NCBI GenBank assembly: GCA_016235065.1
Contig: JACRMB010000010.1
Location: forward strand, 6,281 to 70,280
Source: Actinomycetota bacterium
Lineage (GTDB): Bacteria > Actinomycetota > Thermoleophilia > BMS3ABIN01
DNA length: 64,000 nucleotides
Direction of reading: 5' to 3'
Part shown: positions 27,655-63,211 of the stretch, piece after piece
How the letters are laid out: each line of letters opens with the position of its first letter
Position numbering within the stretch: position 1 is the stretch's first letter
Made by a program: the position numbers and the translations under genes
Notes under the pieces: generated by a model
Seen by the model: only the letters and a program-made list of their open reading frames with translations
Told to the model about the DNA's origin: nothing
Database searches by the model: none

Positions 27655-27825
<171 letters not shown>

Positions 27826-54630: not shown

Positions 54631-56427
54631 TCAGACGGCCTCTCTCAGACTGCTCTTCCCCTCAGATCTTGCAAGGCTGACGAACATCTTCACAAGCCGC
54701 GGGTCAAACTGGGTGCCGGCGCCCTTTTCGAGCTCGGCCAGAGCATCATTCACAGAAAGCGCCTTGCGATAAGGCCTGTCTGAGCGCATGGCCCGGTACG
54801 CGTCCATGATACCGACGATTCGCGCCATCAGCGGGATCTGCTTGCCCTCTAGCCGTTCCGGATAACCCGTGCCATCCCAGCGCTCGTGGTGATATAGAAT
54901 GGCGCTGATCAGTTCCTGAAGCTGCCGGGCCTCCTCAAGGATATGCTGGCCGATCTCCGGATGCTGCTGCACCGCAGCCAGCTCCTGGGGAGAGAGTTTA
55001 TCCTTCTTTGAGAGGATCGCTCCGGGAACACCTATCTTGCCGATATCGTGCAGACGGGTCGCCAGGGCCAGCGCGTCCGCCTGCTCGTCTTCCATTCCCA
55101 GTTCCTTCGCCATCGCGTCGACGATAGCGTTGAGTGACATTGTGTCGCTGACGGAATAATTATCGCTTGCATCCACTGCCTCAGCCAGAGCACGGATAGT
55201 CTGCAGGCTGGCACCCTCCAGGCGACTGTTGAGCCGTTCGATATCGCCTTCCTCGAGCTCCGTCCCTGAGAGGTCCCGGAAATAAGCGACCCGGTTCCGT
55301 CCCCTGCGCTTGGCGAAAAGCAATGCCGAATCGGCTGCCGATATCAGGCTGTCGGCATCGCTGGCACAGTCGGGCATATCAGCGACCCCGAAGCTTGCGG
55401 CAACGATATTCTCCGGCAATTCCACGTCCCTGGCGACATCCTTCATCAGCCCCCTGAGCCTGTCGGCCGTCTCCATGGCTGTACTCGCAGCTGCCTCAGG
55501 CAACAGGACGATAAATTCTTCGCCACCGTATCGGGCCGTATAGCCACCCTCATGGACCTCATTGCGCAGCAGTTTTCCGACCCGCCGCAGCACTTCGTCA
55601 CCCTTCTGGTGACCGTACCGGTCGTTCACTGTCTTGAAATGGTCCAGATCCAGCATGATCATAGAGAGGGGTTTGTGACGGGACTCAGCTCGATCCGCTT
55701 CCCACCTCAGGTGATGCTGAAAATGGGCGTGGTTGCGAAGTCCCGTCAAAAGGTCGGTGTCAGCCATCTCCCGAGCCTGCCTGTGGAGCAGCTCCAGCTC
55801 GGCATACTGGTCCTTCAGTTCTTCGTTGGCGGCCGCCAGCAGTTCTTCTTTCTCACGAACGGCCAGCATCAGGCTGTTGAAGTTCTCGCCGATCTCATCG
55901 ATAGGATTCTGCCCTACCGCATACCGGTAGACTTCGCACTCAGAACAGCCACCCAGCTTCTGGGCGAACCGCCCCTGGACCTCTCCACCACAGTAAGTCC
56001 CCGCTACGAGCCAGCAGCGGACATGCTCCTTTCCGTATGCCGGGCACGATGTCTCACCACAGTCCTTGATCTGCCAGCAGGTCCCGATATTCTCATCTTC
56101 AAAACTGACGTCCCATACCTGTGCCTGCACCGCGTCGTGCGTCAGGCTGGAGAATCTCGATTTTGCCCCTTCGAGCTCTGCTTTTCGCTGCGCCAGCTCC
56201 ATGTTCCTCTGGTAAAGGGTGATCTTCACGAGGTAGTAGCAGAACGCGCCGACAAGAAAACCCGCAACCAGGCAGGCAAACCTGAAATACAGCTTGCGAT
56301 CCGGATCCCAGGTAACAAAGGGGCTTGCGATATATGGAAATACCAGGCCCATGGTCAAACCGAAAGCGATCATGACCATAAAAATACGCCTCATGGATGA
56401 AAGACGCTCCGCGAAAAATCGTATCAT
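54631..56427 (-). CDS. Membrane-anchored GGDEF diguanylate cyclase + HD-GYP phosphodiesterase with a 7-Cys module
   Basis: 2 TM helices, then CWQIKDCGETSCPAYGKEHVRCWLVAGTYCGGEVQGRFAQKLGGCSECEVY, then GGEEF, then HDIGK...HHERWDGTGYP. GGAGG Shine-Dalgarno. Confidence 0.85.
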   Translation of the reverse strand: MIRFFAERLSSMRRIFMVMIAFGLTMGLVFPYIASPFVTWDPDRKLYFRFACLVAGFLVGAFCYYLVKITLYQRNMELAQRKAELEGAKSRFSSLTHDAVQAQVWDVSFEDENIGTCWQIKDCGETSCPAYGKEHVRCWLVAGTYCGGEVQGRFAQKLGGCSECEVYRYAVGQNPIDEIGENFNSLMLAVREKEELLAAANEELKDQYAELELLHRQAREMADTDLLTGLRNHAHFQHHLRWEADRAESRHKPLSMIMLDLDHFKTVNDRYGHQKGDEVLRRVGKLLRNEVHEGGYTARYGGEEFIVLLPEAAASTAMETADRLRGLMKDVARDVELPENIVAASFGVADMPDCASDADSLISAADSALLFAKRRGRNRVAYFRDLSGTELEEGDIERLNSRLEGASLQTIRALAEAVDASDNYSVSDTMSLNAIVDAMAKELGMEDEQADALALATRLHDIGKIGVPGAILSKKDKLSPQELAAVQQHPEIGQHILEEARQLQELISAILYHHERWDGTGYPERLEGKQIPLMARIVGIMDAYRAMRSDRPYRKALSVNDALAELEKGAGTQFDPRLVKMFVSLARSEGKSSLREAV

Positions 56428-56455
56428 CTTGCTGCCTCCGACCTTTTCCTGGAAC

Positions 56456-58252
56456 TTAGCCTGCCTGGCGTAATTCCTGATCTTCCCCGCTCTTTACCAG
56501 CTCCACGAATATCTCAACCAGCTGTGGATCGAACTGGGTACCTGCGCCCTTCCGCAACTCTTCCAGTGCGACTACAGGCTTCAAAGCTTTGCGATACGGC
56601 CTGTCGCACAACATAGCCCGGTATGCGTCCATGATTCCTACAATGCGAGCCATGACCGGGATCTGCTCACCTGCCAGCCGCTCCGGATAGCCATTGCCAT
56701 CCCAGCGCTCGTGGTGATAAAGGATCGCCTGGATCAGGTCCTGTATCTGCTCTGCCTCCTGGAGCAGCTTCTGGCCGATCTCGGGATGCAGCTGAACCTG
56801 GGAAAGCTCCTCGGGCGAAAGCTTCTCAGTCTTTCTGAGGATGGAACCCGGGATGCCCACCTTGCCGATATCATGCAGCCTCGTGGCTAGAGCCAGGGCG
56901 TCCGTCTGTTCCTGGTTCATGCCCAGCCGCTCCGCGATAGCTACAGCGACATGCGCCATCCTGGAAGTACTCGCTTCAGAGTAATCGTCGCAGGCATCCA
57001 CGGCTTCGGCTAGGGCTCTAATGGTCTGCAGGCTGGCGCCCTCGAGGCGGCTGTGCAACTTGTCGAGGTCACCATCGCGCAGCTCGGTGTCTGAAAGGTC
57101 ACAGAAATAGGCAACGCGGTTGCGGCCCTTCCTCTTGGCAAACAAAAGGGCAGAATCAGCGGCGGATATAAGACTCTCAGCGTTGCTGGCGCAGTGGGGC
57201 AGATCGGCGACCCCGAAGCTCCCGCCAACAAGGCCGGAAGGCAGATCGACCTCCGCCTCGACGCTACTCATCTCACGCCTCATGTTGTCAGCGATTTCCG
57301 TCGCCCTCTCAGCAGTCATATCTGGCAGCACTAACGCGAACTCCTCCCCGCCATAACGCGCCGAGTAGCCCGTCCCACGCACACTGTTACGGATGAGCTT
57401 TCCCACGCGCTGAAGGACTTCATCGCCCTTCTGATGGCCGAAATGATCATTGACGTCCTTGAAGTGGTCGAGGTCCAGCATGATCAATGAAAGCGGCCTG
57501 CTGTATCGCTGGGCCCGCTCCACTTCCCACTGGAGATGCCGCTGGAAGTGGGCGTGGTTTCTCAGACCTGTAAGCATATCCGTATCAGCCATCTCCCGAG
57601 CCTGCTTATGCATCAGCTCGAGCTCTGTATACTGCTTCTGCATCTCGGCATTGGTGTCGCTCAGAAGATCTTCCTTCTCGCGCAGCGCCCACATGAGGCT
57701 GTTGAAATTCTCACCTATCTCGTTGATCGGATCGCGGCTGACAGATACCTGGTATATCTCACATTTTGCGCAATCCCCGAGCTTCTGGGCAAAATGTCCC
57801 TGGACCTCTCCGCGGCAAAAAGTACCGGCGATCAGCCAGCAGCGTACGTGCTGCCTGCCATAGGACGGGCAGTCCTCGGATTTGCAGCCTTTGACCTCCC
57901 AGCAGGTGGGAATGGAAGGATCCTTGAAACTCACGTTCCAGTCTTTTTTGGTGATAGCGTCGTGGGTCAGCGTGGAGAACTTGGTCTTGGCTTCAAACAG
58001 CATGCTCGACTGGTGGTGGATTTGATCAGATTCCCGGCCGATGACAAAGGCTGCGGTCCCACCCAGAACAGGCGCTACGAGGATATGCATGGCTTCATAA
58101 TCCGCGCCATACCGCATTTCCACAATATATGCGAAAAGGGCATACACAAAGCCCGCAGCAGCCCCGGCGATGCCGTAGTTCAAGGCCTTTCGACTGTGGT
58201 TTGTTGCCCTCACGACCGCCCTGTCAGTGGAAGAAACAGCTAAAGCTCCCAT
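56456..58252 (-). CDS. Paralogous GGDEF + HD-GYP membrane protein with the same 7-Cys module
   Basis: Same architecture, with CWEVKGCKSEDCPSYGRQHVRCWLIAGTFCRGEVQGHFAQKLGDCAKCEIY. ATG 58252 chosen over 58369. Confidence 0.8.
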   Translation of the reverse strand: MGALAVSSTDRAVVRATNHSRKALNYGIAGAAAGFVYALFAYIVEMRYGADYEAMHILVAPVLGGTAAFVIGRESDQIHHQSSMLFEAKTKFSTLTHDAITKKDWNVSFKDPSIPTCWEVKGCKSEDCPSYGRQHVRCWLIAGTFCRGEVQGHFAQKLGDCAKCEIYQVSVSRDPINEIGENFNSLMWALREKEDLLSDTNAEMQKQYTELELMHKQAREMADTDMLTGLRNHAHFQRHLQWEVERAQRYSRPLSLIMLDLDHFKDVNDHFGHQKGDEVLQRVGKLIRNSVRGTGYSARYGGEEFALVLPDMTAERATEIADNMRREMSSVEAEVDLPSGLVGGSFGVADLPHCASNAESLISAADSALLFAKRKGRNRVAYFCDLSDTELRDGDLDKLHSRLEGASLQTIRALAEAVDACDDYSEASTSRMAHVAVAIAERLGMNQEQTDALALATRLHDIGKVGIPGSILRKTEKLSPEELSQVQLHPEIGQKLLQEAEQIQDLIQAILYHHERWDGNGYPERLAGEQIPVMARIVGIMDAYRAMLCDRPYRKALKPVVALEELRKGAGTQFDPQLVEIFVELVKSGEDQELRQAG

Positions 58253-58405
58253 CGGTCCCGGATGAACAAACTTTAAATAGCCCTTCTTTATTTGAAGGGG
58301 TTCCACGGAAAGGGTTGAAACAACTACCTGTGGGCTTTTTGAAGCCCGGTAAATACGGTGATTATCCATGATTCGAGCCTGGATAGCGGAAATGGAGTCT
58401 TACTG

Positions 58406-59530
58406 ATGTACAGACTTGTCTTTTCACGAAAAAGCATACAGATAACAGGCGTTGGCGGAAGGCTGGCAGCCTGTATGTTCCTGCTTGCCCTCTTCCTCGC
58501 CGGCAGTACTGCCCTGGCGCAATCAGATGTCGCTTCCCGACAGGCGGAAGTGGATCGCATCAGAGCCGAAGTCGCTTCCATAAACCAGGCTGCCGAGCAG
58601 GCTATAGAACGATACAACCAGGCCAACTCGGAGCTTGAGGAGACCCGCCGCCAGATAGCCGAGAATGAGAAAGCCCTGGCAGATGCGACGGTCAAGCTGA
58701 CCGAAGCCCAGCTGCGCCTGGACAAGCGCCTCGAGAACATCTACCGCCAGGGCTCGCTCAGCTTCATGGATGTGATGCTCAACACGAGTTCTTTCAACGA
58801 GTTTCTGTCGAGATTCGACCTGCTTGGCAAGATCGGGGCCCAGGACAAGACCGACGTCGAAGAGGTCCTGAGCCTGAAAGCAGTGACAGAGCAGGCGAGG
58901 GCCGATCTCGACCGCACCAGTCTGCGTCAGGAAGAGCTCCTGAACGCCGTCAACGGTGAGAAGTCCGAGATCGAAGCACAGCTCTCGGCGCGCCAGTCCG
59001 TTCTTTCCAGCGCTGAAGGGGAAGTAGCCCAGATGCTGGCCCAGCAGCAGGCTGCGGAACAACAGTCCCAGGCGGTCTACCAGCCCGCAGGTGGCGCTGT
59101 CGCAACAGATCCCGGCGCAGAAGACTCACCGTCAGGCGAACCTGCCCCCGTGGAAGATCCCGGATATTCCGATCCACCGCCGCCCACGAGCGGTGACGCG
59201 GCATCAATAGCCATGGGCTACCTTGGTGTCCCATATGTGTGGGGCGGCGCCTCACCTGCTGGCTTCGACTGTTCAGGACTGGTCATGTATGTATATGCCC
59301 AGCTCGGCATCTACCTGCCTCATTCGGCATCGGCACAGTACTATTCCGGAACGCCGATCAGCTACTCGGAACTGGCGCCTGGTGACCTCGTGTTCTTCGG
59401 CAGCCCCATAGGGCACGTGGGCATCTACATCGGCGGTGGCAGCATGATCCATGCCCCGTTCGAAGGCCAGGTTGTCTCTATTACTGGTGTCAGCGGCGGC
59501 GGCACTTATTCCGGAGCCTGCAGGCTTTAG
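58406..59530 (+). CDS. Secreted NlpC/P60 peptidoglycan endopeptidase with N-terminal coiled-coil
   Basis: Signal peptide, then a long coiled-coil, then the NlpC/P60 core (GFDCSGLVMYVY...GHVGIYIG...H). GGAG Shine-Dalgarno. ATG 58406 chosen over 58358. Confidence 0.8.
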   Translation: MYRLVFSRKSIQITGVGGRLAACMFLLALFLAGSTALAQSDVASRQAEVDRIRAEVASINQAAEQAIERYNQANSELEETRRQIAENEKALADATVKLTEAQLRLDKRLENIYRQGSLSFMDVMLNTSSFNEFLSRFDLLGKIGAQDKTDVEEVLSLKAVTEQARADLDRTSLRQEELLNAVNGEKSEIEAQLSARQSVLSSAEGEVAQMLAQQQAAEQQSQAVYQPAGGAVATDPGAEDSPSGEPAPVEDPGYSDPPPPTSGDAASIAMGYLGVPYVWGGASPAGFDCSGLVMYVYAQLGIYLPHSASAQYYSGTPISYSELAPGDLVFFGSPIGHVGIYIGGGSMIHAPFEGQVVSITGVSGGGTYSGACRL

Positions 59531-59622: not shown

Positions 59623-60924
59623 ATGTCTGATCCCGCTGCAAAAAGAATATCCATCGGCCTGCTCGGTTACGGCACGGTCGGCTCCAGCGTATATAGTCTG
59701 ATAAACGATCAGGCACTGGAGATCGCCCGCACCACCGGAGCTACTGTTGCCGTCAAGAAGATCCTCGTACGCGATATATCTGTCCCGCGACAGGACGCAC
59801 CGGCTGAGATCTTCACCGATGATTACGAAGACATCATCAATGATCCTGAGATCAACACGATCGTGGAGCTTATCGGCGGCATCGAGCCGGCTTTCGACTA
59901 CATCACCAGCGCCCTCGAAAAGGGCAAGTCTGTCGTCACAGCTAACAAACAACTCCTCTCACAGAAGGGTTTCTATCTTTTCCGTCTGGCCCGGGAAAAA
60001 GGGACTCAAATAAGATTTGAAGCCAGTGTGGCCGGAGCCATACCCGTCATCAAGGTGCTGCGCGAATCTATGGTCGCCGCGGACCTGACCAGCGTCTACG
60101 GGATCGTCAATGGAACCACTAATTTTATCCTGACAGAGATGAGCCGCACCGGTGCCAAATATCAGGACGCCCTGGCGAATGCTCAGGAATGGGGTTACGC
60201 CGAATCTGATCCGACCGAGGATATAAGCGGCAAGGACGCCGCCGCCAAGATGGCGATCCTGGCTTCCATCGCTTTCCACACAGTCGTCGACCTCGACGAT
60301 GTGGCCTGCATCGGCATCGAGGGTATCAGTTCCCTCGACATCTCTTACGCCCGCAGCCTGGACATGTCCGTAAAACTCCTGGGAGTCGCGAAGCTATACG
60401 ATGACAGGATCAACGTGAGGGTTTATCCAGCACTGCTCAAGAAAGACCATCCGCTTGCCTCGGTCAGCGGCGCCTACAATGCCGTATTCCTCAAGGGCAA
60501 TTCGATCGATGAGATCATGCTTTCCGGTCCAGGAGCAGGCGGTATCGAGACCGCCTCCGCCGTCGTCGGCGACATCGTCTCCATAATCGCCAGGGAAAAG
60601 CCGGGTATGCTCGAGGAGATCTCCGCCTGGCGCGAGCTCGAGTTCTATCCCGACGACGAGGTCGTATCGAAATTCTACCTGCGCCTCGAGGTGAACGATG
60701 AACCTGGCGTCCTTGCCACAATCGCGCAGATCTTCGGCAAGCACGACGTCAGCGTGGAGAGCGTCATCCAGCAGGGGCGTGGAGACCACGCCGAACTGGT
60801 GATGGTGTTCCATCCAGTCAAGGAAGCTAGCTTCAGGAGTGCTCTCGAGCAGATTGCCGAGCTTCCCGAGGTCAAGTCACAGCCGAGGCCGATCAGGGTC
60901 GAAGGAGACGGCTATGAGCAGTGA
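59623..60924 (+). CDS. hom: Homoserine dehydrogenase
   Basis: NAD-binding GYGTVG and a C-terminal ACT domain, 433 aa. Confidence 0.9.
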
Positions 60925-61978
60925 TAGCCTGAGAGGCACCTATCTTATCGAACGCTACCGCCGTTTCCTGCCCGTCTCTGACAGTACGCCAGTGATCAGC
61001 CTCGCCGAAGGGTCTACCCCGCTCCTGCCAGCGCCAAGGCTGGGAGAGCGGCTGGGACTGGACCTGTATCTGAAACTCGAAGGCCTGAATCCGACCGGCA
61101 GCTTCAAGGACCGCGGCATGACCATGGCCGTATCCAAGGGCCTTGAGGAAGGCGCCGGCGCGGTTATCTGCGCTTCGACCGGAAACACCTCAGCCGCAGC
61201 CGCCGCTTATGCCGCCAGGGCCGGGATCCGCTGTATCGTGATCATCCCGGAGGGCAAGATCGCCGCGGGCAAGCTCGCCCAGGCGATCACTCACGGCGCC
61301 GAGGTGCTGTCAGTAGCCGGCAATTTCGACCAGGCCCTGGACCTGGTGCGGGCTATCGTGGAGGAATATCCGGTTCAGCTCGTCAACTCCATCAATCCGC
61401 ACCGGCTCGAAGGACAGAAGACCGGCGCGTTTGAAGTCGTTGACTCTCTTGGCGACGCCCCCGACTACCTCTCCATCCCTGTCGGTAACGCCGGCAACAT
61501 CACCGCATACTGGAAAGGCTTCAACGAGTACCTCGAAGCCGGCCTCTGCAACCACCTGCCGCGCATGATCGGTTTCCAGGCGGCCGGGGCGGCTCCGCTG
61601 GTGCTGGGACATCCGGTGGAGAATCCGGAGACTATCGCCACAGCGATCCGGATCGGAAATCCGGCCCGAGGCGACCAGGCCCTCCAGGCGGCATCAGACT
61701 CGGGAGGGCTGATCGATGCGGTCACTGACGAAGAGATCATTGATGCATACAAGCTGGTCGCTTCCACGGAGGGCACTTTCTGCGAACCCGCTTCCGCGGC
61801 CAGCCTGGCCGGTGTGATCAAGAAACAGAAGGAAGGCCTGTTCAGCGAAGGCGACAGGGTCGTCTGCGTTCTCACGGGTCACGGCCTCAAGGATCCCGAT
61901 ACAGCCATCAGCAACGGCCGCGAAGTAACCCGGGTTGAGGCAGACCTGAAGCAGGTTGTCAAAGTCTTGGGCCTTTAG
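60914..61978 (+). CDS. thrC: Threonine synthase
   Basis: PLP-fold (FKDRGM Lys motif). GAAGGAG upstream. Overlaps the hom stop by 11 nt. Confidence 0.9.
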
Positions 61979-61987
61979 GAGCCAACC

Positions 61988-63211
61988 ATGAAGTATCTGG
62001 TGTTGATTCCCGACGGTTCCGCAGACGATCCCCGACAGGAACTGGGAGGGCTTACTCCCCTCCAGGCTGCCAGGACACCCAACTTCGACCGGCTGGCCCG
62101 GGAAGGCCTTGTCGGCCTCTCGAGAACGATCCCGGATGGTTTCGCTCCCGGCAGCGATGTCGCCAACCTCTGTGTCCTGGGATATGATCCTCATCTTTAT
62201 TACACCGGCAGGGCTCCCCTCGAAGCCGCCAGCCTCGGAATCGTTCTTCATGATGGCGATGTAGCATTCCGCTGTAACCTTGTCCATGTGGAGGAAGGCA
62301 TCATGAAGGATTTCTCCGCTGGACATATCGATACAGAGGCAGCGACCGAGATCATCTCATTCCTTCAGGAAAACCTCGGCTCTGGCGGCGCCACTTTTTA
62401 CCCGGGCCTCAGCTACCGTCATATAATGGTTTCCCGCGGAAAAGCACTTGAAGCACAATGTACGCCTCCTCACGATATCAGCGGCAAACCTTACGAAGCA
62501 CATCTGCCATCCGGGAACGGGGGCAGCTGGCTGCGCGGGCTGATGGAGGTCTCGGCCAGGCTGCTTGCTGACCATCCCGTGAACCTGAAGCGCATCTCTG
62601 AAGCGAAGGCTCCAGCGAACATGATCTGGCTCTGGGGCCAGGGCACCGCACCCAGGATGCCGACTCTGGAGGAACGATTCGGCCTCACCGGGTCAGTGAT
62701 CTCGGCGGTGGACCTGGTAAAAGGGCTCGGGAAAAATGCCGGTCTCAAGGTCGTCGAGGTCCCGGGCGCGACCGGCTGGCTCGATACCGACTACGAAGCC
62801 AAGGCTCGCTACGCACTGAAAGAGCTTGAATCACGGGATTTCGTCTATGTTCATGTAGAGGCGCCGGACGAAGCTTCTCACTCGGGGAACTCAGCCGCGA
62901 AGGTCGAGGCCATCGAGCGTTTCGATTCGCTGCTGCTCGGGACGCTCCTTGAGGGGCTGGCTGAATACCCGGAATTCCGCATTCTGATAATGCCCGACCA
63001 CGCCACGCCACTGGCGATCAAGACCCATAACATGGAACCGGTGCCGTTCCTTGTCTTCGATCCTTCGCGGCGGGGCGATAGAGACCAGGGTTTCAACGAA
63101 GCATCTGCGGCTGCGAGCCAGCTACGCTTTGAGAACGGCTGGGAACTCATGGAGTGGTTTTTGAGTGATCCGGCGGCCGATCCCGAATATAAGAAAACGG
63201 CGGAGACTTAA
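61988..63211 (+). CDS. Cofactor-independent phosphoglycerate mutase-like protein (archaeal-type iPGM / metalloenzyme superfamily), occupying the thrB position
   Basis: 407 aa with an ApgM-like sequence (LIPDGSADDP...RTPNFDRLA). It lies directly downstream of hom-thrC, with GGAG 8 nt upstream. Confidence 0.7.
   Translation: MKYLVLIPDGSADDPRQELGGLTPLQAARTPNFDRLAREGLVGLSRTIPDGFAPGSDVANLCVLGYDPHLYYTGRAPLEAASLGIVLHDGDVAFRCNLVHVEEGIMKDFSAGHIDTEAATEIISFLQENLGSGGATFYPGLSYRHIMVSRGKALEAQCTPPHDISGKPYEAHLPSGNGGSWLRGLMEVSARLLADHPVNLKRISEAKAPANMIWLWGQGTAPRMPTLEERFGLTGSVISAVDLVKGLGKNAGLKVVEVPGATGWLDTDYEAKARYALKELESRDFVYVHVEAPDEASHSGNSAAKVEAIERFDSLLLGTLLEGLAEYPEFRILIMPDHATPLAIKTHNMEPVPFLVFDPSRRGDRDQGFNEASAAASQLRFENGWELMEWFLSDPAADPEYKKTAET

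Follow-up and report, generated by a model that had tools for sequence, protein, structure and literature searches.

Organization of the locus

The window (the whole 64,000-nucleotide stretch that was analysed, to which positions without a prefix refer) includes hom, thrC and a third gene, named here homK, in this order and on the same strand. The genes and the sites discussed below are the following:

59623..60924, + strand: hom, homoserine dehydrogenase with a C-terminal ACT domain, 433 amino acids (PRK06349, 518 bits)
60914..61978, + strand: thrC, threonine synthase, 354 amino acids (TIGR00260, 330 bits)
61977..61981, + strand: AGGAG ribosome-binding site, overlapping the thrC stop codon, 6 nt 5' of the homK ATG (from the sequence)
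61988..63211, + strand: homK (TIGR02535 / ThrB2), ApgM-fold predicted homoserine phosphotransferase, 407 amino acids
62012-62014, + strand: Asp9, metal ligand (from the alignment)
62153..62155, + strand: Ser56, predicted catalytic phospho-acceptor, equivalent to S56 of BT2402 (from the alignment)
62858..62860, + strand: Glu291, equivalent to E299 of BT2402, proposed specificity residue that is Lys in true mutases (from the alignment)
62867..63028, + strand: stretch with the metal ligands Asp294, His298, Asp337, His338 and His347 (from the alignment)

The 3' end of hom and the start of thrC, whose ATG is at position 60914, share 11 nucleotides (ATGAGCAGTGA), and a 9-nt gap separates the end of thrC (61978) from the start of homK (61988), just as the preliminary description of this DNA had it. 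Both hom and thrC score above the NCBIfam cut-offs. The location of the AGGAG site over the thrC stop codon suggests that translation of thrC and homK may be coupled. A promoter and terminator scan gave no signal above chance level, and no threonine riboswitch, lysine riboswitch or T-box was found in the window, where the sole Rfam match is an FMN riboswitch (RF00050, 111 bits) at 27700-27820 on the - strand. A coiled-coil and NlpC/P60 peptidoglycan hydrolase is encoded 92 nt 5' of hom on the same strand (58358-59530, +), and positions 54631-58369 (-) code for a tandem pair of GGDEF and HD-GYP-type proteins of 598 and 637 amino acids, both with a membrane part at the N-terminus and, ahead of GGDEF, a similar cysteine-rich segment that is unnamed in Pfam.

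In terms of pathway roles, the product of hom is the substrate for the step ascribed to homK, and thrC consumes the product of that step. The hom-thrC-homK order is kept in all 18 loci examined from the genome's own family (f1 below). Among 80 homologous loci drawn from many phyla, 65 have hom, thrC or an aspartokinase gene no more than 5 kb away on their own strand, and several of the remaining 15 are short contigs. The conserved order and the link to threonine genes mean that the arrangement is not a product of chance.

Family assignment and predicted fold

The only Pfam domains found in the homK product are PF10143 and PF01676, with no kinase domain and no GHMP kinase domain, and the closest solved structures by sequence are the archaeal cofactor-independent phosphoglycerate mutases 2zkt, 3idd and 3kd8, in agreement with the earlier description of the protein as an archaeal-type iPGM-like one. 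The protein scores 533.3 bits on TIGR02535 ("proposed homoserine kinase"), above the cut-off of 446.3, as well as 519 bits on TIGR00306, the model for the ApgM subfamily, and 551 bits on PRK04200 ("cofactor-independent phosphoglycerate mutase"), which is its top NCBIfam label. This last label does not discriminate, because BT2402, the HomK protein of Bacteroides thetaiotaomicron, passes PRK04200 too (582 bits). The models specific for mutases are missed (PRK04024, 307.5 versus 489 bits; PRK04135, 195.7 versus 468 bits), and so is the PhpG phosphonoformyl transferase model NF038358 (229 bits, cut-off 545). An AlphaFold model was obtained with pLDDT 93.7 and pTM 0.90, and its fold matches the Pyrococcus ApgM structure 2zkt_B with a TM score of 0.81 at 30% identity.

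That a gene in this context had been proposed before as an analog of ThrB, as stated in the preliminary description, is confirmed by the records of the family. The role was proposed in TIGRFAM TIGR02535; BT2402 mutants require threonine, and a first attempt at complementation failed (bioRxiv 10.1101/741918). The family was then named ThrB2, with 300 gut genomes that carry it, 278 of these without thrB (PMC9026213), and HomK by GapMind 2026, where an E. coli thrB::kan strain was rescued by BT2402 and by DET_RS08350 of Dehalococcoides mccartyi, although weakly (OD600 increases of 0.14 and 0.22-0.25 after 47 h) (bioRxiv 10.1101/2024.10.14.618325). Thermoleophilia are not mentioned in the text of that report (bioRxiv 10.1101/2024.10.14.618325). 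Our literature search found no in vitro HomK reaction or phosphate donor, and no biochemistry for the archaeal members of the Glu type MJ0010, AF1751 and AF1425.

Catalytic and proposed specificity residues

As a reference for BT2402 we used the copy in a B. thetaiotaomicron MAG that was retrieved with the published primer and sits between thrA and thrC. The homK product and BT2402 have the same length of 407 amino acids and are 43.5% identical over 402 columns; D9, S56, E299, D302, H306, D346 and H347 of BT2402 correspond to D9, S56, E291, D294, H298, D337 and H338, and His347 is conserved without exception across 40 aligned sequences, BT2402 among them. No functional difference between the two proteins is apparent from this comparison. 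GapMind 2026 numbers three metal ligands of BT2402 as D274, H278 and H325, but the fetched sequence (L118:2053-3273) has N274, E278 and V325; its corresponding ligands are D302, H306 and, judged from the alignment, H356.

It is hardly conceivable that homK is a catalytically dead relic, since none of the eight catalytic, metal and specificity residues is altered, the structural model is confident and the gene is under purifying selection, with dN/dS values against six close relatives of 0.05-0.10, which are rough as dS is near saturation.

The proposed specificity residue is Glu291. On the basis of a structure model, its equivalent E299 was proposed to bind the amino group of homoserine, the residue being Lys in mutases (bioRxiv 10.1101/2024.10.14.618325). 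Glu occupies this position in 132 of 132 HomK-like loci, some of which are refetches of one gene, and Lys occupies it in 10 of 10 distant ApgM-like proteins of the class as well as in 2zkt and 3idd. The Glu group, with the homK product and BT2402, is split from the Lys group with 100% SH-aLRT in a quick tree with a midpoint root, which gives no direction of transfer.

Homoserine kinases and phosphoglycerate mutases in the genome

The genome (2.37 Mb in 10 contigs, 98.87% complete, 58% G+C) has as its closest named relatives Thermoleophilia MAGs at 66-79% identity. The statement that the window includes no GHMP-type thrB holds, and none was found in the rest of the genome either: TIGR00191 had no match at E<=1e-20 genome-wide and tblastn with a Thermoleophilia ThrB query had none at 1e-4. 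ThrH (TIGR02137) was not found in the genome. Other candidates for the step were considered and rejected. The sole PF00288 (GHMP) match is IspE, the two APH-type matches are a UbiB-like protein and PknB, and the sole shikimate kinase gene lies within aroC-aroK-aroB and its product scores 94.8 against 197 on the Desulfovibrio homoserine-kinase model. The genome includes an aspartokinase gene and, 3' of it, a gene that by eye resembles asd. With the other steps present and no known homoserine kinase found, the threonine pathway is complete only if homK carries out the ThrB step. A further homolog of threonine synthase, which scores 298 bits on TIGR00260 and shares 39% identity with the operon thrC, is encoded at L179:6612-7859 (G000:C1:195704-196678) and also in both same-genus genomes checked.

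The fold, the scores on TIGR00306 and PRK04200 and the identity of the nearest structures could also be explained if homK coded for an additional phosphoglycerate mutase of glycolysis (ApgM), present by chance in the threonine operon, while an unrecognised kinase phosphorylates homoserine. We consider this very improbable. Residue 291 is Glu and not Lys, the gene is linked to threonine genes in many phyla, and the searches turned up no other homoserine kinase of a known type. A separate glycolytic mutase, one of the checks proposed earlier, exists in the form of a gpmI gene (TIGR01307, 687 bits, above the cut-off) that adjoins tpiA; the third PF01676 member of the genome is deoB. Counting this genome, gpmI is present in 148 of 151 genomes of the class, and two of the three genomes that lack it, G031 and G121, carry a Lys-type ApgM (L169:2789-5017 and L170:1467-2669; one scanned protein passes PRK04135), which is probably their glycolytic mutase and is what the Glu/Lys rule predicts.

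We therefore read homK as coding for HomK, which very probably supplies ThrC with O-phospho-L-homoserine in a genome where no ThrB was found. The preliminary description had proposed a candidate non-orthologous homoserine kinase, and the family, the residues, the operon, the lack of thrB and the separate gpmI all support that idea, which is not a new one: homK is a non-orthologous replacement of ThrB that belongs to a family already established. With it the threonine pathway of the genome is closed, and the annotation should read homK instead of the phosphoglycerate mutase of the top NCBIfam model.

The likeness to the published HomK extends from the catalytic serine, the metal ligands and the specificity Glu to the threonine operon and the genome without thrB. 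The differences are in the gene order, which is hom-thrC-homK here and thrA-homK-thrC in the published case, and in the host, a Thermoleophilia actinobacterium. ApgM proteins (TIGR00306; PH0037, 2zkt; Thermoplasma acidophilum, 3idd and 3kd8) share the fold, the two-metal site and the catalytic serine, but have Lys at the place of Glu291 and carry out an intramolecular transfer on phosphoglycerate. ThrB (GHMP, TIGR00191) catalyzes the same step with the same product as HomK, but it has an unrelated fold, depends on ATP and is absent from the searches of this genome and family f1.

Distribution in Thermoleophilia

The class was surveyed in 150 other genomes grouped in families f1 to f11. Since these families are kin, only a handful of independent events underlie the counts. 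HomK was found in 19 of the 20 other genomes of f1 and in all 26 of f5, where a few copies are partial or split, and thrB in none of either family. Families f2, f4 and f6 to f11 include nothing near the HomK cut-off and have thrB in 71 of 78 genomes. Family f3 has a HomK-like gene in 23 of 26 genomes, thrB in 20 of 26, and an intact HomK together with thrB in 17 of 26, which means that HomK and thrB are not strictly exclusive. With these findings the range of HomK takes in three or more Thermoleophilia families.

The context of homK in f3 is mostly lysA-hom-pfk-homK (L129-L138, e.g. L130:5006-8850 and L133:1123-6198), with a phosphofructokinase-family gene in the place next to homK where thrC would be expected, and thrB (L119-L128, L180-L183) is located elsewhere, away from hom and thrC. 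The co-occurrence in f3 could mean that the two are redundant while one replaces the other, or that HomK has a further role. In the six f5 loci examined (L139-L144) the intact HomK gene has neither hom nor thrC within 5 kb. Several f5 HomK loci lie 5' of what by eye appears to be a membrane pyrophosphatase gene.

Proposed mechanism and phosphate donor

Based on analogy, HomK is probably a ping-pong phosphotransferase with a phospho-serine intermediate that does not depend on ATP. The chemistry is proposed from knowledge of the alkaline-phosphatase superfamily and the conserved residues, and the product from the complementation of thrB by homologs; our view of the activity of this particular protein, of its ping-pong cycle and donor and of the part played by Glu291 is inferred. 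Two divalent metals, one held by Asp9, Ser56, Asp337 and His338 and the other by Asp294, His298 and His347, would activate Ser56, which would take the phosphate from a small phosphorylated donor. After departure of the dephosphorylated donor, homoserine would bind with its alpha-amino group on Glu291, a role taken from the published model, and its gamma-hydroxyl would receive the phosphate to yield O-phospho-L-homoserine, to be consumed by ThrC.

The donor has been argued to be a compound other than ATP, possibly phosphoserine (bioRxiv 10.1101/2024.10.14.618325). The idea of a homoserine kinase would accordingly stand for the phosphorylation of homoserine and not for ATP dependence, the enzyme being probably a phosphotransferase with a non-ATP donor. 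The assay with homoserine and ATP that had been suggested is probably the wrong test and could miss HomK activity, because the donor is probably not ATP. We give phosphoserine about an even chance of being the donor; 2/3-phosphoglycerate seems a rather doubtful choice, PEP or another phosphometabolite is doubtful to the same degree, and ATP or PPi is less likely still. The question of the donor concerns the whole HomK family, and this locus offers no special handle on it; BT2402 is better suited.

Phosphoserine should be available in the cell, as serA, found in 20 of the 21 family genomes, adjoins a gene for a class V aminotransferase in the usual SerC3-type arrangement. The order is ilvC, the class V aminotransferase gene and serA (L151:407-2634 and L153:1306-3078; G000:C1:184800-188800), probably representing SerC3-type serine genes within a branched-chain amino-acid cluster.

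A related possibility, to which we assign a low probability, is that the protein is bifunctional, acting as HomK in vivo while retaining some activity as a mutase or phosphatase, or taking the phosphate from phosphoglycerate, with the glycerate then recycled by a MOFRL glycerate kinase. It overlaps the interpretation favored here and differs from it only in the donor. The descent of HomK from mutases and the presence of a MOFRL-type glycerate kinase homolog in this genome and in all five others of the genus are compatible with it, but only 10 of the 21 family genomes yielded a member of the MOFRL family, though nearly all keep HomK. As this kinase would be needed with a phosphoglycerate donor, we lean, weakly, to phosphoserine. 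Also against a bifunctional protein, no GarK type was found in this genome, the only one searched for it, Glu291 should disfavor an anionic substrate, and HomK was reported to show no co-occurrence with glycerate kinases (bioRxiv 10.1101/2024.10.14.618325).

If phosphoserine were the donor, the net reaction could be the same as that of the phosphoserine:homoserine phosphotransferase ThrH of Pseudomonas aeruginosa (TIGR02137). ThrH has a HAD fold with a phospho-aspartate and is not homologous to HomK.

The serine branch and SerBK

Searches of the genome with TIGR00338 and PF00300 gave no canonical SerB. A homolog of DUF1015/SerBK, a published SerB substitute and putative serine kinase, is encoded at G000:C3:33547-34587 and is present in all 21 family genomes; an IMPase-like gene and a HAD gene without assigned role are also in the genome. 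Considering these genes, the idea that HomK is the sole outlet from phosphoserine for lack of SerB was rejected. A missing serB would lend HomK appeal as a source of serine, but this argument is not specific to HomK either, because DUF1015/SerBK is nearly class-wide (137 of 151 genomes, including families that have only ThrB), and the notion that DUF1015 tracks HomK was not supported. Canonical serB scored above the cut-off in four genomes of the class, and three of these (G043, G079 and G091) are without DUF1015; this complementarity agrees with a SerBK that takes the place of SerB.

A HomK that used phosphoserine would yield phosphohomoserine and free serine with each turnover and would be a real outlet for phosphoserine, and SerBK and HomK together would form an ATP-driven homoserine kinase relay; we regard this scheme as speculative and rather unlikely. 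Were HomK to use phosphoserine, the f3 genomes, with both HomK and ThrB, might retain HomK for its role on the serine side.
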